A DNA stretch of 64,000 bases from a candidate division WOR-3 bacterium (GCA_015492295.1 WGFI01000094.1:8560-72559); one strand, 5' to 3'. Positions 29,787 through 41,566 are shown, counted from the stretch's first letter. A program made the numbers and translations. Notes: generated from the sequence alone by a model not told the origin.

Positions 29787-30419
29787 ATGTCAAGTAGATT
29801 GGTAGAAATATTTGAGGATGAAAAACTCGTAGAGAAAATCAAAGATAAACTACCTTATTTGTTTCAACTTGCAGAATTGGAAAGTTCAAGAGCAGGCAAA
29901 ATTGGAATGAAAGTTGGTTCTCTTCGTGAAAAAATAGTCATTGCCTTACTTATTTACAAATTCGGAGAAGAGAATGTGGAGACGGAAATTCCAATCACAG
30001 AACCAGAGATTGATGTAAAATTATTCGGTAAACCAATATCCATTAAAACAATAACTGGTAAAAGTTTTAGCGGAGTTAAACTCATATGGACTGTTGATGC
30101 TCAGAAAGCAAGAGAATTCAGGGAGCACTACTATCCACATTGTGATATTTTACTTGTCCAAATTAATTGGGGAGATATTGGAGGGTTTTATTATATTCCA
30201 GTAGAAGCGCAACAGAAACTCTTTGATAAGATAGGTAGAAGTGGATATATTAAACTGCCAAAGCCAGGCACAAATCCAAGAGGTGTGGAAATAACTAAGG
30301 AAGCATTAAAGAGTTTGGTTAACGACAATTTAACGAGAAAAATTGAGATAAAATGGCAGAAAAGAAAAATTGAGTTTAATCCTTACAAAAGATGGGTAGA
30401 TTACTGGAGGGAGAATTGA
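29787..30419 (+). CDS. Putative type II restriction endonuclease (family not recognisable)
   Basis: 210 aa with no detectable family signature. It lies directly upstream of a DNA methyltransferase and overlaps it by 28 nt. It has a strong SD (GAGGAGG) that host genes lack, and AT-rich A/K/E-rich codon usage unlike its neighbours. A possible PD-(D/E)xK-like segment is TEPEIDVKL. The assignment rests on context. Confidence 0.45.
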   Translation: MSSRLVEIFEDEKLVEKIKDKLPYLFQLAELESSRAGKIGMKVGSLREKIVIALLIYKFGEENVETEIPITEPEIDVKLFGKPISIKTITGKSFSGVKLIWTVDAQKAREFREHYYPHCDILLVQINWGDIGGFYYIPVEAQQKLFDKIGRSGYIKLPKPGTNPRGVEITKEALKSLVNDNLTRKIEIKWQKRKIEFNPYKRWVDYWREN

Positions 30420-31354
30420 GAATGAAAAGAAGAAGGAGAAGGAAAGGGACTAGAACGAGTTCGTTTGGGGCACCGGGTAGAATAAATCACGACTCTACTC
30501 CGTTTTATACGAGTAAGTTATATGAGGGCTTGCCAAAGGAACAAGAGATGAACTATGTGGAAAATCCGATACCTAAGGGATTTTTAAACAAAATTTTCTG
30601 TAAATCCTCGGAAAATATGGAAGAATTACCCGATAGCAGCGTTCATTTGGTGGTAACCTCTCCACCTTATAATGTAGGGAAAGAGTACGATAAGGATCTT
30701 ACCCTTCAAGAGTATCTTGAATTTTTAAAGAGGGTTTGGAGGGAGGTTTATAGGGTTCTGGTTCCGGGTGGTAGGGTATGTATCAACATAGCCAATCTTG
30801 GAAGAAGGCCGTACATTCCTCTTCATGCTTTTATCATAAAGGATATGCTTGACATAGGATTTCTTATGAGAGGGGAGATTATCTGGAATAAATCATCCTC
30901 CGCAGGTTCATCAACGGCGTGGGGTAGCTGGTGCTCAGCATCAAATCCGACATTAAGGGACATTCATGAGTATATTCTGGTATTTTCAAAAGGGACATTC
31001 AAAAGGGAAAACATTGGGAGGAGAAGCACCATTTCAAAGGAGGAGTTTCTGGAATTCACGAAAAGCGTCTGGACATTTCCAGCCGTTTCCGCAAAGGAGG
31101 TGGGACATCCTGCCCCATTCCCCCTTGAACTTCCTTATAGATGCATTCAACTTTATACCTATGAAGGCGAAGTCGTTTTGGATCCTTTTATGGGGAGTGG
31201 GCAAACCGCCATCGCCGCAATAAAAACCCGAAGATTTTATGTTGGGTATGATATAGAGGAGGAATATGTTAAATTGGCGGAAAGAAGGATAAAAGCATTT
31301 TTGATAGAATATAAATCACCCAAATTGTTTGAATTTACGGGAGAAAGTAAATGA
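30392..31354 (+). CDS. DNA methyltransferase, beta-class amino-MTase (N4-cytosine or N6-adenine; the SPPY motif favours m4C)
   Basis: 320 aa. Motif IV is VVTSPPYNVG, and motif I (FxGxG, DPFMGSGQTAIAA) lies at the C-terminus, giving the beta-class order. The true start may be the internal ATG at about 30422 or 30554 (MNYVEN...). The listed N-terminus is an Arg/Lys-rich tail. Confidence 0.8.
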   Translation: MGRLLEGELRMKRRRRRKGTRTSSFGAPGRINHDSTPFYTSKLYEGLPKEQEMNYVENPIPKGFLNKIFCKSSENMEELPDSSVHLVVTSPPYNVGKEYDKDLTLQEYLEFLKRVWREVYRVLVPGGRVCINIANLGRRPYIPLHAFIIKDMLDIGFLMRGEIIWNKSSSAGSSTAWGSWCSASNPTLRDIHEYILVFSKGTFKRENIGRRSTISKEEFLEFTKSVWTFPAVSAKEVGHPAPFPLELPYRCIQLYTYEGEVVLDPFMGSGQTAIAAIKTRRFYVGYDIEEEYVKLAERRIKAFLIEYKSPKLFEFTGESK

Positions 31355-32038: not shown

Positions 32039-32555
32039 TTACTAATGTGGATAAGCTAAGAGCTTTTGGGAAATGGATTGCGGTAGGAGGACCTGCTACT
32101 TTGTCATTTTTTAACCCAACGATTTCGGCTTTTGGGAGCTTAATAGGTGGATATTTTTTGCTATTTGATCCCGCTGCAACGACAGATAGCAGGCATCTTC
32201 GGTGAAGTTTCGCATACCCGCCCACCGTTATACCTAAGATTTTTTACCTCCTGCCACTATTTATATGAACTCACATAGTTCTTTATACCCACCCATACGT
32301 ATGATATTCTTCTTCTCATCCCATTCATGGAATACCCTATTATCGGTATTACATTGACAGGATAATAACCTTTTTTCACTTATCCCGTATGATACCTCAT
32401 TCACGCAATACCCACCATTGATTAGCAATTTTCACAGCTTCTCAGAATACCTATAAGAGATTGAAACGATAAATTTGCATATAAATTTTAAAACAGTTCA
32501 GGAAAGTTTATAGCCTGCATATGAAATAAGATTTTTCAAGTGTATAATACCTACT

Positions 32556-33320
32556 ATGGGAACCGTTAAATTGGATATAAAAGGTGAAGTCGCCAATATA
32601 ATACTGAATCGTCCTGAGGTTGGTAATGCTTTCAATAGGGATATGCTTATGGAATTGAAAGATATATGTGAAGACATTTCCAAATCTGAGAATCTCAGGG
32701 TTGTTATAATTTCAGGGGAGGGAAAACATTTTTGCGCCGGTGGGGATCTCAACTGGATGAGAGATATGGGGAAATCCGAATATTCTATAAACTATGATGA
32801 TGCGCAGCTTCTATACGATACATACCTATCCCTTGAAAATCTCCCTGTCCCTTTGATATCCAAGGTGAAAGGTGCGGTTAGAGGAGGTGGTATGGGTATA
32901 GTTAGCGTAAGCGACATAGTCATATCTTCAAATAAAGCCACCTTTTCGTTCTCAGAGGTAAAACTGGGACTTGTTCCTTCAATAGTCTCATCGTTTGCAT
33001 TACTTAGGCTATCCTATTCCATGGCCAAGAGGTTATTCCTAACCGGTGAGGTGTTTGACGCGGAGTTCGCGAGGAGCATAAACTTTGTGGATGAAGTCGT
33101 TGATGAGGGGGATCTGGATAAAAAAGTTCAAGAGTTCGTTGAGATTATACTCTCCAACAAACCCGAGGCTGTGAGGAAAACAAAAAATCTTATGAAGATA
33201 TATAGGGGTTTTCAGGGAAGCGTTTATAAAGATATAACCTCGCATATTTTGGCAACCACACGGATGAGCAAGGAAGCCTTAGATGGTATAGAGGAATTTC
33301 TACAAAGGAAAAGAAAGTGA
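32556..33320 (+). CDS. Enoyl-CoA hydratase/isomerase (crotonase family)
   Basis: 254 aa. The sequence is VANIILNRPEVGNAFNRDM...FCAGGDLNWM...GGGMGIV, giving the oxyanion-hole motifs. Confidence 0.85.
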   Translation: MGTVKLDIKGEVANIILNRPEVGNAFNRDMLMELKDICEDISKSENLRVVIISGEGKHFCAGGDLNWMRDMGKSEYSINYDDAQLLYDTYLSLENLPVPLISKVKGAVRGGGMGIVSVSDIVISSNKATFSFSEVKLGLVPSIVSSFALLRLSYSMAKRLFLTGEVFDAEFARSINFVDEVVDEGDLDKKVQEFVEIILSNKPEAVRKTKNLMKIYRGFQGSVYKDITSHILATTRMSKEALDGIEEFLQRKRK

Positions 33321-33347
33321 TTCTCAACCTTATAATACCCTACTCCT

Positions 33348-34478
33348 ATGTTGCCCATATCTTTCATAGGCATTGATACCGTGCTCCTTGATAAAGCCGA
33401 TAATAATGTCGTAATAAGATGGATATACAGTGGTGAGATAAAGCCGGATTCTATATATATTTTCAAATCAACGAAAGAACATCCGCCTGAGACTCCGATG
33501 ATCATAGGCAGGGTTTCCTATCCTGAGACCCTTTTCGTGGATACATCACGAGTTCAAGGAGAATATCTGCTTAGAATATTCTACGGAGAGGATAAGTTTG
33601 ATACGGGTTGGCTAACTTTATCATCTCCTGATCCAAAAAAGGAGCAAACGGAGGATGAGAAAAAGAAGGGAATTATAAAGTTTGATAGTGGCAAACTTAA
33701 TATACTCATCGCCATTATTTTGTTTGCATCGTTATTCTCGGCCCTTCTCTTTATAGCGAGGGTTAATCCCAACATTTATATAAGAAGGATAGGTGGGCTT
33801 GATGCTATTGATGATGCCGTAGGTAGAACGGCCGAACTTGGAAAACCTATAATATACACCACGGGGATAGGGAGTATAGATTCCCTTCCTATACTCGCTG
33901 GACTTACGGTTTTAAAGCATGTAACTAAGAAATCCGCACTTTACGAAGTTCCCGTTGTTATGCCCAATAACGATCCCTTGGTTCTTGCCGCCGCTCGTGA
34001 AGTTGTAAGGGAAGCATATATTGAAAGTGGAAGGCCGGATCTGTACAATGAGAATGATATATTTTTCTTAACCACGGAGCAGTTCGGATTCGCTTCTGGT
34101 ATAAGCGGTATGATGCAGAGGATGAAACCGGGAGCGGTATTTATGATGGGATACTTCTACGCTGAATCCTTGATATTGGCGGAGAATGCTAATGTAAGTG
34201 GAGCCATTTCAACCGCTGGTACCACGGCCATTGATCAGCTTCCTTTTTTCGTCGCAGCTTGTGATTATACCATAATAGGAGATGAGCTTTACGCCGCTTC
34301 TGCTTATATATCTCGTAATCCGCTTGAAGTCGCCAGCATAAAAACGGGGGATTGGTTTAAGGCTTTAAGTGTGGCCTTTATTCTCATAGGCTCATTACTG
34401 GCTACGATGATACTATTCAACGAGAATTTGAAGTTCCTACTTGATAGTTTGATGGTTATGTTTAAAACAGGAGGATAA
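33348..34478 (+). CDS. Hypothetical membrane protein (N-terminal soluble domain, TM helix, conserved-looking C-terminal domain, C-terminal TM)
   Basis: 376 aa. It has a beta-rich N-terminal domain of about 100 aa, a Lys/Glu linker, a TM helix (ILIAIILFASLFSALLFIA), a roughly 200-aa domain (GGLDAIDDAVGRTAELGKPIIYTTGIGS...GISGMMQRMKPGAVFMMGYFY...) and a final TM. No family is recognised. Confidence 0.45.
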   Translation: MLPISFIGIDTVLLDKADNNVVIRWIYSGEIKPDSIYIFKSTKEHPPETPMIIGRVSYPETLFVDTSRVQGEYLLRIFYGEDKFDTGWLTLSSPDPKKEQTEDEKKKGIIKFDSGKLNILIAIILFASLFSALLFIARVNPNIYIRRIGGLDAIDDAVGRTAELGKPIIYTTGIGSIDSLPILAGLTVLKHVTKKSALYEVPVVMPNNDPLVLAAAREVVREAYIESGRPDLYNENDIFFLTTEQFGFASGISGMMQRMKPGAVFMMGYFYAESLILAENANVSGAISTAGTTAIDQLPFFVAACDYTIIGDELYAASAYISRNPLEVASIKTGDWFKALSVAFILIGSLLATMILFNENLKFLLDSLMVMFKTGG

Positions 34479-34480
34479 AA

Positions 34481-35266
34481 ATGCAAAGGCAGGGTCCCAT
34501 AGCCGTTGTCGTTCTTTCCGCTTTATTTTCAACCGTTACTTTCTTTTTAAAAGGTGCCGATGAGATACAGACATACGGGATACTCATAGCGATAGTGATC
34601 TCGGGATTCGCTTTGATTCTGGGTGTTGATAGTTTGATCCTTTATCACACGAGAAACATTCAAAGAGGTAAAAATTCTCTTTTCAGCGGGATTCTTCTTA
34701 TAAGCTTCTGGACAACCGTTATATGGGGTATATTCGCCTGGTATAGATACGGTTCTCCGTTCGCTCAGAACTCATCCTTCATGTGGTTATTCATAAATGT
34801 CTATCTTCCTCTTGACGCCACCATGTTTTCAATTCTCGCCTTCTACATAGCTTCGGCCGCATATAGAGCCTTCCGAGCGAGAAATACGAATGCACTGGTT
34901 CTTTTATTGACCGCCTCAATAATTATGATAGGAAGGGTATTGTACTCAAACATCGTATTCCCCTTAGGATTAAGTATATTTTTATTCATTTCAGGTTTTT
35001 GGATATTCAAAAATGTGGGTAGGCTTTACGGTGCGGAGTTGATTTTCAGAAGATTTCTGGGTGCATTCCTTATGGCTGGGGCGCTTGTCGTTTTGGTACC
35101 TTCAATATTTAGTTTTATAGGCAGTAAAGCGTCTTTTCTAACAGATTGGATATTAAGCATACCTCAGAATGCTGCTAAGAGGGGGATGATTCTTGGTTTG
35201 AGCTTTGGTCAGGTGGCGTTCGCTTTAAGGATAATGTTCGGTATAGAAAGGTCGTGGATAAGGTAA
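34481..35266 (+). CDS. Hypothetical polytopic membrane protein
   Basis: 261 aa with 7-8 predicted TM helices. The ATG is 3 nt after the upstream stop, with an SD (GGAGGA). No family is recognised. Confidence 0.45.
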   Translation: MQRQGPIAVVVLSALFSTVTFFLKGADEIQTYGILIAIVISGFALILGVDSLILYHTRNIQRGKNSLFSGILLISFWTTVIWGIFAWYRYGSPFAQNSSFMWLFINVYLPLDATMFSILAFYIASAAYRAFRARNTNALVLLLTASIIMIGRVLYSNIVFPLGLSIFLFISGFWIFKNVGRLYGAELIFRRFLGAFLMAGALVVLVPSIFSFIGSKASFLTDWILSIPQNAAKRGMILGLSFGQVAFALRIMFGIERSWIR

Positions 35267-35282
35267 TTAAGAACCCTTTCGG

Positions 35283-35293
35283 CCTTAGAATAC
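35283..35293 (+). promoter_or_regulatory. CCTTAGAATAC promoter-like element (duplicated again at 35909..35919)
   Basis: It lies 4 nt upstream of the ATG of each tandem coiled-coil gene and is part of the duplicated unit. Confidence 0.45.
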
Positions 35294-35297
35294 GGAT

Positions 35298-35897
35298 ATG
35301 AGGCAAAGCACAGCTGAATTGTTCTTAAAGCTAAGGGAAAAGCTTGGAGAGGACACTGCGAAGGTCTTGACTGACTACCTTGAAGATGTTAAGGAGGATT
35401 TAACGAGTAAGTTTCTAACCAAGGATGAGGCCATACAGTTGTTTGAGACTTTAAAGGCCGAAATAAGAGCTAATAGGAGAGAGTATATCCAGATGTTTAA
35501 AGCATTGAAAGCGGAGATAAAAGCGCTTGACGAGAAGATGGATGCAAAATACTCGGCGCTTGAAGAAAAGATAAATGCGGTTGAGAAGGAGGTAAAAGCC
35601 CTTGAAGAGAAGATGGACGCCAAGTATTCCTATCTTGAAGGCTTGATACACTCCTTGGAGGAAAAGATGGACGCTAAATACTCAGCACTTGAAGATAGGA
35701 TAAAATCTGTCGAGACGGAAATTAAGGCACTTGACGAGAAGATGAACGAGAGGTATCAAAGGCTTGAGGAGAAGTTTGACCACAAGATAGACAGGACGAA
35801 CCTGTTGTTGATCTTCTTAATAATCCTAACAATCCTCGGCACAACTCTGTTCAACCCTAACTTTATAAACATAATGAAGATGCTTTTGGGACGATAG
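35298..35897 (+). CDS. Tail-anchored coiled-coil repeat protein, copy 1
   Basis: 199 aa. A helical N-terminus is followed by four or more roughly 25-aa repeats (KALDEKMDAKYSALEEKINAVEKEV / KALEEKMDAKYSYLEGLI...) and a single C-terminal TM (LLLIFLIILTILGTTLF). CCTTAGAATAC lies 5 nt upstream of the ATG. Confidence 0.6.
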   Translation: MRQSTAELFLKLREKLGEDTAKVLTDYLEDVKEDLTSKFLTKDEAIQLFETLKAEIRANRREYIQMFKALKAEIKALDEKMDAKYSALEEKINAVEKEVKALEEKMDAKYSYLEGLIHSLEEKMDAKYSALEDRIKSVETEIKALDEKMNERYQRLEEKFDHKIDRTNLLLIFLIILTILGTTLFNPNFINIMKMLLGR

Positions 35898-35923
35898 AAC
35901 CCTTTCAGCCTTAGAATACGGAT

Positions 35924-36448
35924 ATGAGACAAAGCACAGCTGAACTTTTCTTGAAGCTAAGGGAAAAGCTTGGAGAAGACACTGCGAAGGTTCTAACCGA
36001 TTACCTTGAAGATGTTAAGGAGGATCTAACGAGTAAGTTTCTAACGAAGGATGAGGCTATACAGCTGTTTGAGACCTTGAAGGCAGAGATCAGGGCTAAT
36101 AGGAGAGAGTATATCCAGATGTTTAAAGCATTGAAAACGGAGATAAATGCTCTTGAGGAGAAAGTGGATGCCAAATACTCAGTGCTTGAAGAAAAGATAA
36201 ATGCGGTTGAGAAAGAGGTAAGAGCCCTTGAAGAGAAGATGGATGCTAAGTATTCCTATCTTGAGGGATTAATAAATGCTTTAAGGAACGAGATGAATGA
36301 GAGGTATCAGAGACTTGAGGAGAAGTTTGACCACAAGATAGATAGGACGAACTTATTGCTGATCTTCCTGATAATCCTAACAATCCTCGGCACAACTTTG
36401 TTCAATCCTAACTTTATAAACATAATGAAGATGCTTTTGGGTATGTAG
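35924..36448 (+). CDS. Tail-anchored coiled-coil repeat protein, copy 2 (tandem paralog, one repeat unit shorter)
   Basis: 174 aa. It is near-identical to copy 1 over the N-terminal 70 aa and the C-terminal TM. The duplicated DNA unit includes the upstream CCTTAGAATAC element. Confidence 0.6.
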   Translation: MRQSTAELFLKLREKLGEDTAKVLTDYLEDVKEDLTSKFLTKDEAIQLFETLKAEIRANRREYIQMFKALKTEINALEEKVDAKYSVLEEKINAVEKEVRALEEKMDAKYSYLEGLINALRNEMNERYQRLEEKFDHKIDRTNLLLIFLIILTILGTTLFNPNFINIMKMLLGM

Positions 36449-36454
36449 GGCCTT

Positions 36455-37585
36455 TTATTCCAACACTTTTAAAATCTTCTCATATCTTTTTAATGCTTCG
36501 GATGGTTCTAATATGCCTTTCAATACGGGTTCCATAACCTCGGTGGCAAAATATCTTCTACCTCTCATCCAAATTTCCGTATTGGGTTCATAGGTGGCCC
36601 TATCTATCTGTTTAAATACGGGTTTCAATTCCTCCGATGAAAGGTTTATATCGGTTATGGGTGAATATCCTGTCCTCTCCGACCAGAACTTTTGAATACT
36701 ATCCTGTAAGAAAAATGCGATGAATCTCACAACTTCCCTGTACTCATTCTCGCTATGTCCCGTAAATATAGTTAAATTCGTTCCAGAGATAACTACGGAA
36801 TCGTATCTATCCACCGGTATGGGAGAGACGCCGAGTTTGAAAGATATTTTCGGTTTCATAAATACATAGGACACCGATGTGGCCCATATCATTAGGACCT
36901 TTCCGGAGGCAAAATCGTCCTGATGGCTGTACCCTGATCCCAGGTACGCGCAAGAATCCTCCAATATCAGTCTCCTTAAAAACTCCAAAGTTTCCAATCC
37001 TTCCTTACTGTTAAATTTCAAATCCTTCCCCCCCTTCTGTTTGAATATGGTGTAATATATCCAAGGGTCAATTGTAAAAGCAAATCCCCATATACCTTTC
37101 TCCTTCGCTTTTTTACATACATATTCCAACTCATCCCATGTCTTAGGGACATTCAATGAGTATCTTTCCATCAGATCCGCATTGTAAAATATCACGGGAA
37201 CGCTTTTGTTAAAGGGAATTGATACAACCTTCCCATCTATTTTAACTTCTTGTAATAGTCTCGGGTGAATTTTCCTAAGGAGACTTTCGGGCACGACCTT
37301 GTACGCCGGCATTACGAGATTCTTCTTAAAGAATTGTCGTGTCCAAGAGGGGAAAGTTTGGGCTATTAAAGGCAATCTTTTTGATACGGCGAAAGATATC
37401 AACCTCTGTGATAGAGTATTATAGCTTCCAAGATTCACTTCCTTTAAACCGCTCCTTGAAACTATCTCGGATAAAGCATCTCCCAATGGTCCCCCCATAG
37501 CATGCCAAAATTGGTAAGATGTTGAGGGCTGTTTGCACTGGGAGATGAATAAAATCATTAAACATGGATTTATCAATCGTTTCAT
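36455..37585 (-). CDS. ABC transporter substrate-binding protein (family 1, carbohydrate-type)
   Basis: The listed ORF extends to 37669, but the likely start is MKRLINPCLMILFISQC (signal/lipoprotein-like) at about 37585. The mature N-terminus (YQFWHAMGGPLGDALSEIV) and overall composition match sugar SBPs. No cognate permease or ATPase is adjacent. Confidence 0.55.
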   Translation of the reverse strand: MKRLINPCLMILFISQCKQPSTSYQFWHAMGGPLGDALSEIVSRSGLKEVNLGSYNTLSQRLISFAVSKRLPLIAQTFPSWTRQFFKKNLVMPAYKVVPESLLRKIHPRLLQEVKIDGKVVSIPFNKSVPVIFYNADLMERYSLNVPKTWDELEYVCKKAKEKGIWGFAFTIDPWIYYTIFKQKGGKDLKFNSKEGLETLEFLRRLILEDSCAYLGSGYSHQDDFASGKVLMIWATSVSYVFMKPKISFKLGVSPIPVDRYDSVVISGTNLTIFTGHSENEYREVVRFIAFFLQDSIQKFWSERTGYSPITDINLSSEELKPVFKQIDRATYEPNTEIWMRGRRYFATEVMEPVLKGILEPSEALKRYEKILKVLE

Positions 37586-37714: not shown

Positions 37715-38443
37715 ATGGTTGGGCTGCACCTAGTTATAGCATTTGATATTTTTAAGACGAAATGGGTGGGTATGGGTGTTCAGAGTTTCATTCCGACGGG
37801 TTCAGCCTGTATAACCCAAATATTGACCTCTGGGCCTGACAGCTTGGGATATGTTTATCTCATAGGTGTGGCGAGCAATAGCGAGACCCAAGCGTTTTTC
37901 CGAACGAGATGGAAAGGGACATTCGTTCAATCATTCTCACCAACATCGGGTTGTTTGAGGGGATTCTTAGCCGAAAGCGATACCCTCGGATACATATACC
38001 TCAAAGCATTCACGGATAGCGATACGGGTTATATATTGAAATCAGCGTATGTAGGAACCTATGTTCAGAGTTTTGATGCTTCACCCTGTTATATAAGGGG
38101 TTTTTCAGCGAAAAGCGATACGGGTGGATTTGCAGTTTTATCGGCCGATACTATATGCGGAATAGTGTCCTACTCCGAGGACTTCACACCTATAAATTCA
38201 CTTAAAATACTGTCAATAAATAACGATAGAAGGGGTGTCCTGATAAAATACACCGTTCCGAGATATGGGAGGGTAGTCCTCTCAATTTATACACCATCGG
38301 GAAGAAAAATCTATCAAAGAGTTTCTACGAGACATGTCGGAATATATCGGGAGAGGGTAGAGCTGCCGTCGGGAGTATATATTATATCGCTTAAAGAGGG
38401 TAAGGACAAGGTTATACAAAAGTTTGTAAGGCTTGGAAAATAA
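37715..38443 (+). CDS. Secreted repeat protein with T9SS-type C-terminal domain
   Basis: 242 aa. It has three roughly 45-aa repeats centred on G(T/M)(F/Y)VQSF. The C-terminus (LSIYTPSGRKIYQRVSTRHVGIYRERVELPSGVYIISLKEGKDKVIQKFVRLGK) matches the Por secretion tail. Confidence 0.5.
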   Translation: MVGLHLVIAFDIFKTKWVGMGVQSFIPTGSACITQILTSGPDSLGYVYLIGVASNSETQAFFRTRWKGTFVQSFSPTSGCLRGFLAESDTLGYIYLKAFTDSDTGYILKSAYVGTYVQSFDASPCYIRGFSAKSDTGGFAVLSADTICGIVSYSEDFTPINSLKILSINNDRRGVLIKYTVPRYGRVVLSIYTPSGRKIYQRVSTRHVGIYRERVELPSGVYIISLKEGKDKVIQKFVRLGK

Positions 38444-38457
38444 AAGGAGGTGGAACC

Positions 38458-39156
38458 ATGAAAAGGGTAATTTTAACATCTTTAAGCATAGGTTTGGTTC
38501 TTTATGCAACTGAGGCCTCAGGAGCGTGGATAGAGGGAGGAAATCCCATACCATCCGCCTTCACGAACATGATAGTGTATGACACGCCCGGAACATACAT
38601 CTGGACGGTTCCCGACGGTGTTTATAAGATAAAGGTGGAACTCTGGGGAGGCGGAGGAGCGGGGAATTATTATTCGTCATCGTACTACAGTGTTTATTGC
38701 GGAGGAGGAGCGGGAGGATACGGTTTGGCGATAATAGATGTAACCCCTTCAACGCCATGCGCCATAACGGTCGGTAGGGGAGGAACATCCGCAGGAGCGA
38801 ACGGTGAAAATACTACCATAACTTGTGGTTCCATAACATACACCGCTTATGGAGGTAAGGGAGCTTATTTAACCAGTTCTTCCTGCCATGGTGGTGAAGG
38901 GGGAGGAGCTACGACACCTTTCAGCATAAAGGGTATGTCTGGAGGTGTGTTTTATTATAACAGTAGTAGCCAAAAGTATATCGGTGCTACCATAGGCGGA
39001 TTCGCACCGAGAGGTGGAGCAGGGGCTTTTTATTACAATCCTTCTCTTTATGTTATTAGCGACTCCTCCTACGCGAGATTCCCAGGGGGAGGAGGTTTTT
39101 ATGGAGCACCTTTACACATCAAAGGCGCCAATGGAGCCGTGATAATCTGGTACTGA
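38458..39156 (+). CDS. Secreted glycine-rich domain protein (Gly_rich-like: WTVPDGVxxIKVELWGGGGAG)
   Basis: 232 aa with signal peptide MKRVILTSLSIGLVLYATEASGA. The motif TYIWTVPDGVYKIKVELWGGGGAGN...CGGGAGGYG, followed by poly-Gly/Ser/Thr, matches the Gly_rich family pattern. It has a strong SD (AAGGAGGTG). Confidence 0.5.
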   Translation: MKRVILTSLSIGLVLYATEASGAWIEGGNPIPSAFTNMIVYDTPGTYIWTVPDGVYKIKVELWGGGGAGNYYSSSYYSVYCGGGAGGYGLAIIDVTPSTPCAITVGRGGTSAGANGENTTITCGSITYTAYGGKGAYLTSSSCHGGEGGGATTPFSIKGMSGGVFYYNSSSQKYIGATIGGFAPRGGAGAFYYNPSLYVISDSSYARFPGGGGFYGAPLHIKGANGAVIIWY

Positions 39157-39222
39157 TTTAATACCCGCCGAAGCCTTTTGCCAAAATGATTGGCAAAGTA
39201 AAGTGCTTTATAATGTGCATCT

Positions 39223-40749
39223 ATGATCTGGATGATACTTTCGCAGTATTGGACGCATTATGGGGGAAATCCCCGCCATACGGGTGTTCAAGGTCTCGCA
39301 GGTGGAATGACGAGTATATATGTTAGATGGAAAAGCTATCTATGGACGAGATCATTTCTCGGAATACATGGCTCTCCTGTGATATGCAATGTAACCAATA
39401 CCTCACCGGGGGGCGAAGTTATCGTTCGTGTCGTTAATAATTCCTACTCCAACCTCGTGAAGGTGTATGATGGGAGGTTTGGAACCGTTATATGGACGAA
39501 GTACCTGGGAAGCGGTACGGAGTATGCCACACCTGCCTGTGGAGATCTGAACCTTGATGGCTTAGATGATATAGTGGTTAGAACGAGTAATTCAATAGTG
39601 GCGCTCAGAGGGTACGATGGTAATACTTTGTGGAGCGTATCCGTGGCCAATATGAATTCTTCCCCGGTGGTTGAAGATGTTGTGCCTTCATCATCCGGCC
39701 CAGAGGTGATATATCTGGATCTGAATGCCTTCAATCGTCCCGTACTTTATGTTAGATCAAGAACGGGAAGCGTAATATGGTCAAGGACACTTAGTAATTC
39801 GGAAACTCTCATAGGATACGATGGACAACCCGTGTATTCCACTCCCGCCGTCGGTGATCTTGATGGTGATGGAAACTTGGAAATAGTGATAAAAACGCGT
39901 TCCAACGGTTTGAGGGCATACGATGGGAGGAACGGTTCCCTCAAATGGGTTTATAGTCTGAGTTCAACTTCAAACGCCCAAACTCCAACGCTTATAGATC
40001 TAAACAGAGATGGAAGAAAGGATGTGATATTCTCCGAGGGTCTGTACGCCACCTATCATGATAGGTACCTGAAAGCCGTAAATCACAATGGATCCTTTAT
40101 GTGGCAACTGGATCTCGGAGGTTATATGGCGGGTATAGGATTTGAATACTTCGCAAGCGTTGATATTGATGGGAATAGGTATCCCGAAATATTTCTCGGT
40201 AGGGATCAATATGTACTTCGTGTAAATCAAAATGGTTCATCCGCTTTCGTTCAATGGGCCTTTGGACCCGAGGGGAACTCCTGCTGGGATGCGAGTGTGG
40301 TGATTATAGACATAAACAACGACGGGAACTGGGAAATAGTGAAGACTTGCGACGGTGATCTGGCTCCGCCGGGAAAGATAAGAATTTTCAGGGCATCAAA
40401 TGGAAGCATAATATGGAGTGGAGAGCATGGGTGTTATACAGATCCAAGTGTCGCCGCCGGTGATGTTGATGGGGATGGATGCTCAGAGATAGTATATATA
40501 AAATGTACGAGTACGCTTGATAGCGTATATGTTCTTGACGGTCCGGTATCGCCATGCAGGATACTTTCAGAGGATAGGGAGCTTGACATCGTAGAATCGC
40601 GAAAGACATTGGAGTACAAAAATGCCCTATTGTATTCCGTGGATGGAAGATACATAGGAAGATACGATGAAAAATCGTCCGAATCTTTAAAGCCGGGGGT
40701 GTATTTCATAACGGATGGAAGGAGATACAAAACCTTAATAATAAGATGA
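39223..40749 (+). CDS. FG-GAP/VCBS-repeat beta-propeller protein with T9SS-type C-terminal domain
   Basis: 508 aa. At least six Ca-binding-like blade motifs are present: DLNLDGLDDIVV, DLDGDGNLEIVI, DLNRDGRKDVIF, DIDGNRYPEIFL, DINNDGNWEIVK and DVDGDGCSEIVY. The C-terminus is LYSVDGRYIGRY...PGVYFITDGRRYKTLIIR. The N-terminus lacks a clear signal peptide, so the start is uncertain. Confidence 0.6.
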   Translation: MIWMILSQYWTHYGGNPRHTGVQGLAGGMTSIYVRWKSYLWTRSFLGIHGSPVICNVTNTSPGGEVIVRVVNNSYSNLVKVYDGRFGTVIWTKYLGSGTEYATPACGDLNLDGLDDIVVRTSNSIVALRGYDGNTLWSVSVANMNSSPVVEDVVPSSSGPEVIYLDLNAFNRPVLYVRSRTGSVIWSRTLSNSETLIGYDGQPVYSTPAVGDLDGDGNLEIVIKTRSNGLRAYDGRNGSLKWVYSLSSTSNAQTPTLIDLNRDGRKDVIFSEGLYATYHDRYLKAVNHNGSFMWQLDLGGYMAGIGFEYFASVDIDGNRYPEIFLGRDQYVLRVNQNGSSAFVQWAFGPEGNSCWDASVVIIDINNDGNWEIVKTCDGDLAPPGKIRIFRASNGSIIWSGEHGCYTDPSVAAGDVDGDGCSEIVYIKCTSTLDSVYVLDGPVSPCRILSEDRELDIVESRKTLEYKNALLYSVDGRYIGRYDEKSSESLKPGVYFITDGRRYKTLIIR

Positions 40750-40795
40750 AAAACCCCTCTTGCAGAATTAAGAAAACAGCCTTAGAATATTAGCG

Positions 40796-41566
40796 TTGAG
40801 AAGGATAGCACTCATCATTCTTATAGTCTTACTGGCCGTAATAGCGGGAGGTGGCGCCGGTGTTGGTGTCGCATACTTTATAATAAAAAAGCAATTGGAA
40901 AATATACAGGTGGAAGTTGATACCACCAGAGATACAACATTATCCTTGGTGGATACCACTTTGAGCAAGGTTGTTGAGGAGGTTAAATCCCAAAAACCGA
41001 AGGTCAGTAAGGAGAAATTCGCCGCCAAAGATACCTCACCAACGCAAAATACTCAGGAGATTTTACCGATAAGCACCGAAAGCTCTCAAACCTCACAATC
41101 CAAGCAGGAAACCCTATCCTTAAACTTACCGACGACCAAAACCCCAACACAACCAAAAACATCCACAACGATACCCGATATAAAGGCTCCCACTATAAAT
41201 CTTGGAGAAAGCAACCTATCAGGAAATATAAACCTCAAACCCACGAAAAGCACACCCACCATGCCCGATATAACCCCTTCTCTAAGTGGAGGGTTATCGT
41301 TAAGCATAGAAACATTGAAGGAGGAGGATATTAAGAAGGTGTATTACACGCAGGGGAACATATCAAAGGCTGAGAGGATGGTCAGAAATGCCTTAAAGAA
41401 GAATCCCAACGATGCGGTGGCAAAGAAATATTTACGCATGATAAAACTTGAGAAAACGGCGCTGTCCTTGGAGGCTCAGGGAGATACGGAGGGAGCGAAA
41501 AGGGTTTGGAAACAGATACTTTCAATAGATCCAAATCATCCCAGAGCCAAATCTAAGGTTCAGTGA
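40796..41566 (+). CDS. Membrane-anchored protein with Thr/Pro/Ser-rich linker and C-terminal TPR-like domain
   Basis: 256 aa with a TTG start 6 nt after CCTTAGAATAT. It has an N-terminal TM (IALIILIVLLAVIAGGGAGVGVAYFII), a low-complexity T/P/S/Q linker and C-terminal TPR-like helices (AERMVRNALKKNPNDAVAKKYL...ILSIDPNHPRA). Confidence 0.45.
   Translation: MRRIALIILIVLLAVIAGGGAGVGVAYFIIKKQLENIQVEVDTTRDTTLSLVDTTLSKVVEEVKSQKPKVSKEKFAAKDTSPTQNTQEILPISTESSQTSQSKQETLSLNLPTTKTPTQPKTSTTIPDIKAPTINLGESNLSGNINLKPTKSTPTMPDITPSLSGGLSLSIETLKEEDIKKVYYTQGNISKAERMVRNALKKNPNDAVAKKYLRMIKLEKTALSLEAQGDTEGAKRVWKQILSIDPNHPRAKSKVQ

Follow-up and report, generated by a model that had tools for sequence, protein, structure and literature searches.

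A widespread DUF6754 membrane operon and its putative two-gene form in a candidate division WOR-3 bacterium

Introduction

The Pfam family DUF6754 (PF20539) describes a single protein domain, and neither DUF6754 nor PF20539 was mentioned in the literature searched. Here we describe a member of this family and its partner gene in a 64,000-nucleotide (nt) stretch of DNA from a candidate division WOR-3 bacterium (GCA_015492295.1 WGFI01000094.1:8560-72559; the whole stretch is hereafter the window). The genes in question, g1 to g4, lie at 33348–36448, and an earlier note had proposed that they form one envelope-associated system. g1 matches nearly the whole DUF6754 model and has the same architecture, an alpha/beta domain between two transmembrane (TM) helices. 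In most lineages the DUF6754 gene (component c0) and the homologue of g2 (component c1) are accompanied by two further genes, c2 and c3; the Pfam entry covers the domain only, and neither Pfam nor NCBIfam models c1, c2, c3 or the operon.

By architectural analogy only, the four-gene form recalls ABC type I importers and TRAP/TTT systems, likewise having two polytopic subunits of ~200–260 amino acids (aa). As in binding-protein-dependent importers, there is one periplasmic and one cytoplasmic alpha/beta domain, a tight operon and several paralogous copies per genome. However, the DUF6754 system lacks the Walker A motif (GxxxxGK[ST]) and the signature of ABC importers, searches by sequence and fold linked none of its components to those of ABC, TRAP or TTT systems, and each of its two soluble domains is tied covalently to TM helices. 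The window’s clade, furthermore, has no periplasmic component (c2) at this locus.

GldG-type ABC-transporter auxiliary proteins (Pfam ABC_transp_aux) carry a periplasmic alpha/beta domain between N- and C-terminal TM helices, and their gene stands beside one for a polytopic permease-like protein. c2 resembles this layout, but gave only noise in Pfam at E ≤ 1; in addition, the DUF6754 operon has no ABC ATPase gene, and c2 is absent from the window. For g3 and g4 the nearest parallels are tail-anchored coiled-coil proteins such as the DUF1640/CCDC90-like proteins and phage XhlA, which consist of a short N-terminal helical domain, a heptad stalk and a C-terminal TM helix. g3 and g4 share that layout; no such family was among the best 25 of their 105 (g3) and 56 (g4) Pfam matches and, unlike XhlA, they have no phage relatives. 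Overall, and with slightly better than even confidence, we read g1 and g2 as the core of a DUF6754 inner-membrane complex to which g3 and g4 do not belong.

Results and discussion

Gene layout and family assignment

The four open reading frames (ORFs) delimited in the earlier note were confirmed, all on the + strand; the homologues of g1, g2 and g3 described below speak against chance reading frames. The genes are listed here with the associated features:

33348–34478, + strand: g1, 376 aa, DUF6754-family membrane protein, component c0
34470–34474, + strand: GGAGG ribosome-binding site for g2 in the last codons of g1, read from the sequence
34481–35266, + strand: g2, 261 aa, polytopic partner, component c1, of a family without a name
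35298–35897, + strand: g3, 199 aa, tail-anchored coiled-coil protein of an orphan family
35924–36448, + strand: g4, 174 aa, g3 paralogue lacking one 25-aa repeat unit
35270–36456, + strand: tandemly duplicated cassette with g3 and g4 (unit 626 nt), outside the g1/g2 system; direct repeats D1 and D3 have ~90% nt identity, and synteny with locus L068 stops at 35268

The junction of g1 and g2 is acaGGAGGataaaaATG, with the g1 stop codon at 34476–34478 and the g2 ATG at 34481. Tight coupling of these two genes had been proposed with a 3-nt gap; the gap is 2 nt, and together with the GGAGG inside the 3′ end of g1 it makes the pair translationally coupled. The following gaps are longer, 31 nt between g2 and g3 and 26 nt between g3 and g4. 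Promoter and terminator scans returned sites no commoner than in shuffled sequence. A perfect TATAAT hexamer lies at 33331–33336, 11 nt 5′ of the g1 ATG and with no Shine-Dalgarno sequence between them; it was left unflagged by the promoter scan because it has no −35 match. The g1 transcript might be almost leaderless, or g1 may simply be co-transcribed with the upstream hydratase gene.

No nameable family had been seen for g1 or g2. This holds for g2, which has no Pfam or NCBIfam model, but g1 is a DUF6754 protein at 322 bits (E 2.9e-96; residues 112–356 on model positions 6–250 of 257), the gathering threshold of PF20539 being 27 bits. Its homologues number >3,000 proteins, and the best of them, like the related loci, come from metagenome-assembled genomes (MAGs) of candidate division WOR-3 and Candidatus Caldipriscus. 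Searches of plasmids with g1 gave no matches, and neither g1 nor g2 matched PADLOC or PHROGs. A motif scan of the four proteins detected no Walker A, HxH, CxxC, GxGxxG or DxD motifs, in agreement with the earlier note as regards the first three.

g1 and g2 belong to a conserved operon

To the 61 genomic loci that encode DUF6754 relatives we applied ORF clustering and tblastn; 57 had room for c1. c0 and c1 were adjacent in 53 of these 57 by clustering, tblastn added two more, and two others had the genes in permuted order, hence the pair is linked in every informative locus. With tblastn a g2 homologue was found directly 3′ of the DUF6754 gene in essentially all 61 loci, the misses being contig ends. 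This linkage spans at least seven phyla (WOR-3, Poribacteria, Delongbacteria, Latescibacterota, Acidobacteriota, Bdellovibrionales and Bacillota). g1 and g2 are therefore an obligatorily linked, co-translated and always-adjacent pair, and the linked part of the proposed four-gene system is confined to them, g3 and g4 being absent from every related locus.

Clustering of all ORFs in the loci revealed two further conserved membrane genes after c1, namely c2 and c3. The order c0-c1-c2-c3 occurs in at least 36 of the 47 loci with enough room, with median gaps of 12, 9 and −4 nt. c2 (~278 aa) has a soluble alpha/beta domain of ~210 aa between N- and C-terminal TM helices, and c3 (~224 aa) is a second polytopic protein. 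All four components are thus integral membrane proteins, with one conserved cytoplasmic domain in c0 and one predicted periplasmic domain in c2. Neither c2 nor c3 has Pfam, NCBIfam or PDB relatives, and sequence-profile searches of the PDB with all four components found only FN3. Two ancient paralogies were considered and could not be demonstrated: the relaxed hhalign alignment of c0 with c2 is collinear but weak (P ~0.017–0.035), and c1 and c3 have only a 23-column C-terminal motif in common (P 0.1). Negative searches of Pfam, NCBIfam, the PDB, PADLOC and PHROGs suggest that the operon has no detectable relation to any characterised system.

At the window’s locus and at those of its nearest relatives (L001–L004, L066, L068 and L069; g1 60–89% identical) only c0 and c1 are present, and hidden Markov models of c2 and c3 had no match in the 64-kb window in any reading frame. 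All four genes are present in L067, which represents the next clade out (45% identity). At this locus the two-gene form is specific to the window’s Caldipriscus-like WOR-3 clade, and the window pair appears to be a reduced form of the widespread four-component operon.

Several genomes carry paralogous operons, with two loci in one WOR-3 chromosome (L013 and L059) and three in one Delongbacteria MAG. At L033:260-6759 the operon is tandemly duplicated in the order c2 c3 c0 c1 c2 c3 c0.

The flanking genes are not conserved between clades in the 61 loci. Recurrent neighbours identified with Pfam were TrkH/TrkA, a MutL/GlmL-like ATPase, URO-D and a 6-bladed propeller; others we take, from our own reading of their sequences, to be IorA/B, DapF, EF-P, MGMT, FtsK and a gingipain-like peptidase with a type IX secretion system (T9SS) tail. 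All are clade-specific or housekeeping genes, and we rejected them as general clues to function. A cobalamin link, considered from the MutL/GlmL-like and URO-D-like neighbours, was likewise dropped, as it concerned only ~6 loci and no B12-binding motif was present. TrkH/TrkA potassium-uptake genes lie directly 3′ of the operon in L033 and L039 and after one ORF in L006, with TrkA a few genes away in L008, L012 and L018. In four loci of the Bdellovibrionales type (L053, L054, L060 and L061) a small ORF of 105–198 aa (c19) precedes the four-gene operon, and on its other side come a MutL/GlmL-like ASKHA ATPase (PF13941, 406 bits) and a 377-aa protein without a family. The ATPase may be a clade-specific energising or chaperone add-on.

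Architecture of the DUF6754 protein

The two soluble domains proposed for g1 were recovered in the AlphaFold2 (AF2) model and by hydropathy, each followed by a TM helix. The model has a mean predicted local distance difference test score (pLDDT) of 79.6, and its parts are as follows:

33372–33602, + strand: N-terminal FN3-type beta-sandwich, predicted periplasmic (residues 9–85, AF2)
g1 residues 93–108: disordered Lys/Glu-rich linker (AF2)
33687–33764, + strand: TM helix 1 (residues 114–139, AF2 and hydropathy)
33792–34313, + strand: conserved cytoplasmic alpha/beta core of DUF6754 (residues 149–322, AF2)
34320–34463, + strand: C-terminal TM helix and short terminal helix (residues 325–372, AF2 and hydropathy)

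The N-terminus is a seven-stranded beta-sandwich that can be superimposed on FN3 structures and qualifies as a member of that fold. In the core, five short parallel strands alternate with helices, and no PDB relative was found for it by sequence profile or fold search. The earlier note had proposed such remote-homology searches; run against the PDB by profile and fold, they matched only the FN3 domain of the g1 N-terminus. The C-terminal part is modelled as a TM helix (325–355) and a short helix (359–372), with the hydropathy peak at 336–361.

The arrangement of a TM helix, an alpha/beta domain of ~180 aa and a second TM helix is common to g1 and to 62 of 62 aligned homologues. In this alignment (A1; 62 c0 sequences, down to 38% identity) 43 columns are invariant, most of them in the alpha/beta core, and K332, D335 and K338 are invariant just ahead of the C-terminal hydrophobic stretch. 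Directly after TM helix 1 stands the segment ARVNPNIYIRR, which is positive and hence predicted to face inward; this Arg-rich stretch fits a cytoplasmic DUF6754 core. Most c0 homologues have a canonical signal peptide ahead of the N-terminal module, which places the module in the periplasm and the core in the cytoplasm. Caldipriscus-like g1 proteins start with only ~8 hydrophobic residues (MLPISFIG..., MIVLLSFIG...) and no basic n-region, and a longer g1 reading frame is ruled out by a stop codon four codons upstream of the start.

The N-terminal module itself is accessory and variable. It is absent from the Bacillota and Bdellovibrionales forms (253–285 aa), is an FN3 domain in WOR-3, combines FN3 with a beta-sandwich of the RGI-lyase type in some proteins, and in Delongbacteria is a region of ~340–400 aa without recognised sequence.

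The conservation of the core could also be that of an enzyme anchored in the membrane, such as a transferase that uses nucleotides or phospho-sugars and has a lipid-linked or envelope substrate, which g2 would handle within the membrane. The core is extremely conserved, and numerous Asp, Glu, Arg, Lys, Gln, Thr, Ser and Tyr positions in it are invariant. By our own reading it is also loosely Rossmann-like, with a glycine loop after beta1 (G173; consensus G-L-G) and D209, at least 90% conserved, after beta2, and carbohydrate-active proteins frequently have periplasmic modules of the FN3 and RGI-lyase-like types. Against this, neither sequence nor fold matched a glycosyltransferase or other enzyme family, canonical GxGxxG and DxD motifs are missing, and no conserved sugar-nucleotide or lipid-carrier genes lie nearby, hence we give an enzymatic core little credence.

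The polytopic partner and its loop inserts

The claim that g2 is polytopic was borne out, the protein being all-helical with ~9 helices in the AF2 model and by hydropathy. Its family is large: when 1.84 billion representatives were searched exhaustively with a profile, 2,971 clusters (at 50% identity) were recovered with E ≤ 1e-3, and 2,208 with E ≤ 1e-10. Neither g2 nor any of 63 homologues matched Pfam or NCBIfam, and no Pfam or PDB sequence or fold similarity linked the polytopic subunit to known permease families (e.g. BPD_transp_1, CbiQ/EcfT, ABC-2 and MFS). When every member of alignments A1 and A2 was compared with Pfam, no weak match recurred consistently; DUF373 and DUF3522 were each matched by 7 of 64 alignment members at E > 0.01, and we took these as hydrophobic noise.

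The c1 alignment has 19 invariant columns, and two invariant regions stand out. One comprises TM4 and the cytoplasmic segment after it (PL.ATMFS.LAF.IASAAYRAFRAR), with R129, R132 and R134 (RAFRAR) around the end of TM4 in the window’s g2, and the other comprises the C-terminal helices (W..., P.xAAKRG, G...R...GIER). Lys/Arg-rich N-termini and TM2–TM3 loops are visible in c1 sequences and, by the positive-inside rule, the TM3–TM4 loop is predicted to be periplasmic.

This loop is a hotspot of insertion. Of 149 c1 representatives, 50 have inserts of 63–422 aa, all at this one site (e.g. P0259, P0269 and P0309), and nearly every insert is a singleton unrelated to the rest. They include a WD40 propeller (PDB matches down to 4e-17) and an FN3 domain of the same type as the c0 N-terminus; another, suspected to resemble a carbohydrate-binding module, had no PDB match. 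In P0259 (L070:165-1505) the insert is the soluble domain of c2 (c2 profile 36–188, independent E-value 4.6e-40), and the contig has the gene order c0, c1 with the insert, c2. The c2 domain is therefore predicted to lie on the same side as the loop, in the periplasm. This natural fusion provides independent evidence that c1 and c2 work in physical contact.

The inserts bear on whether the DUF6754 system could instead be a trans-membrane receptor or an envelope tether, whose variable periplasmic modules bind ligands and signal to, or anchor, the cytoplasmic domain. Conserved cytoplasmic and hypervariable periplasmic parts are the pattern of a receptor: the c0 N-terminal extensions range from none to ~400 aa, the c1 loop inserts are nearly all mutually unrelated, and modules such as FN3 domains and beta-sandwiches of the RGI-lyase type commonly serve for binding or as spacers. 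However, no fused or neighbouring output domain of a known kind (kinase, cyclase or DNA-binding) was seen, two polytopic subunits whose membrane spans carry invariant polar residues and prolines exceed the needs of a signalling anchor, and the minimal c0 proteins of Bacillota and Bdellovibrionales have no periplasmic module at all. We consider a receptor or tether unlikely, though less so than an enzymatic core.

A model of the complex

In the inner-membrane complex that we favour, the N-terminal module of c0, the TM3–TM4 loop of c1 and the c2 domain would face the periplasm, and the conserved c0 core would lie in the cytoplasm beside the invariant Arg-rich loops of c1 (AYRAFRAR and AAKRG). 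Acidic invariant residues of the core (E163, E218, E273, E279, D306, E313 and D335) may dock on these loops, and the proteins c0 to c3 would form a stoichiometric complex. The two-gene form would presumably be a homo-oligomer, (c0c1)n.

Tentatively, the complex could be a transporter-like translocation machine. We infer this from the presence of two distinct polytopic subunits that conserve polar residues and prolines within the membrane, from the conserved periplasmic alpha/beta domain, from the several paralogous operons per genome, and since no signalling output domain is present. In this scheme the pathway would run through the polytopic subunits, within whose membrane spans Pro, Gln, Thr, Ser and Glu residues are conserved, and c2, tethered to the membrane, would bind or gate on the periplasmic side. 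Regulation or energisation from the cytoplasm would fall to the DUF6754 core, which is neither an ABC nor a P-loop ATPase; across the 61 loci no gene for an ATPase is conserved.

Several observations count against the favoured interpretation. g1 to g4 contain no ATPase or other energy-coupling motif, and no conserved metabolic or substrate-related neighbour accompanies the operon across loci. The hypervariable periplasmic parts, with unrelated inserts in one third of c1 representatives, better fit a receptor or tether. The AF2 models are of moderate confidence only (predicted template modelling scores 0.60 and 0.53), and g1 residues 241–285 were modelled at pLDDT 56–68 only. Finally, export of the FN3 domain in the window’s clade is an assumption, g1 there having no canonical signal peptide.

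g3 and g4 form a separate duplicated cassette

g3 and g4 are duplicated tail-anchored coiled-coil genes, as the earlier note had recognised. The proteins are 82% identical and align with a single 25-aa gap that corresponds to one repeat unit, and both end in a single C-terminal TM anchor according to alignment and hydropathy. At the DNA level, each duplicated unit of 626 nt starts 28 nt 5′ of a start codon. Tail-anchoring predicts that the coiled coil is cytoplasmic, and hence not an envelope structure.

The family has ~10 members among 5.8 billion proteins and is restricted to close relatives of the window organism. Its members share an invariant 49-aa N-terminus and an invariant C-terminal TM helix, and the coiled coil between these varies by gain and loss of repeat units. 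Library matches to g3 and g4 in Pfam, NCBIfam, PHROGs and PADLOC (FliD_C, SMC, ZorA, LmuB and tape-measure proteins) covered the heptad region only and fell far below the cut-offs, and we rejected them as coiled-coil noise; those in PADLOC and PHROGs reached at most ~28 bits, to coiled-coil regions (LmuB, ZorA, JetC and tape-measure proteins), and the ABC_tran match in Pfam was a coiled-coil artefact only. When isolated, the N-terminal 70 aa and C-terminal 51 aa had no Pfam match at E ≤ 10, and a phage search with g3 had none.

A system of all four genes, with the coiled coils as structural partners of g1 and g2, would agree with the common strand and the short gaps of 31 and 26 nt, and with no convincing terminator between g2 and g3, read-through co-transcription is possible in this genome. 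Comparison with other genomes makes it hardly credible. Homologues of g3 and g4 occur in none of the 61 DUF6754 loci, nor in the four related loci L066, L067, L068 and L069, and the family of ~10 members contrasts with thousands for g1 and g2. In the closest relative, L068 (g1 89% aa identity), the DNA is collinear with window positions 32543–35268 at 88% identity, from just 5′ of an enoyl-CoA hydratase gene (32543) to 2 nt past the g2 stop codon (35268). Beyond this breakpoint L068 encodes a transketolase, a DUF4159 protein and an epimerase, all three missing from the window; the downstream regions are wholly different, which places a sharp rearrangement or insertion boundary at 35268–35270.

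Elsewhere, homologues of g3 and g4 were found in unrelated contexts at four loci (L062–L065, from at least three samples, L062 and L063 carrying the same gene pair), in 1–3 tandem copies and never beside DUF6754 or g2. As g3 and g4 are unlinked from the pair in related genomes, the four-gene module is refuted in the manner that the earlier note had itself specified. g3 and g4 are a recently duplicated, lineage-specific pair of tail-anchored coiled-coil proteins outside the g1/g2 system.

At all four of these loci the g3/g4 homologues directly adjoin a gene for an FG-GAP-type beta-propeller, which is 27–29% identical to the 508-aa ORF at 39223–40749 in the window, ~2.8 kb 3′ of g4. Propeller genes are abundant in genomes of this type, so the adjacency may be chance.

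Other features of the window

A putative restriction-modification pair is formed by two overlapping + strand ORFs at 29787–31354, of 210 and 320 aa; in the translation of the second a methyltransferase motif, ...VVTSPPYNVGKEY... (S-PPY), can be recognised by eye. At 37715–41566, 3′ of a divergently oriented gene for a solute-binding protein, is a likely run of secreted or surface proteins, including a 242-aa ORF with a weak match to a T9SS C-terminal sorting domain, a Gly_rich_2 protein (51 bits) and the FG-GAP-like 508-aa protein.

Implications

Taken together, c0 to c3 could be a new four-component inner-membrane machine, unrelated to any characterised system, in which novel cytoplasmic and periplasmic alpha/beta domains are coupled through two novel polytopic subunits. 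Our confidence in this is somewhat below even. Such a machine would occur in bacteria of at least seven phyla, thousands in number and mostly uncultivated, with the window holding its minimal two-gene core.

The tight spacing of g3 and g4 behind the pair carries a lesson for annotation, in that closely spaced genes on one strand can be a recent cassette, and a single close relative sufficed as proof. The annotation gap is considerable: three of the four operon components have no family model and the fourth is only a DUF, in an operon that is very widespread, with ~3,000 clusters at 50% identity across the phyla named above. Solving the DUF6754 system would annotate thousands of genes in candidate phyla and could reveal a new principle of membrane transport or of trans-envelope function. 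The thermophilic two-gene form in the window is a minimal pair, whose proteins should be thermostable and so suit structural work and, if the new machine is real, would be the smallest functional unit for dissecting the DUF6754 system.

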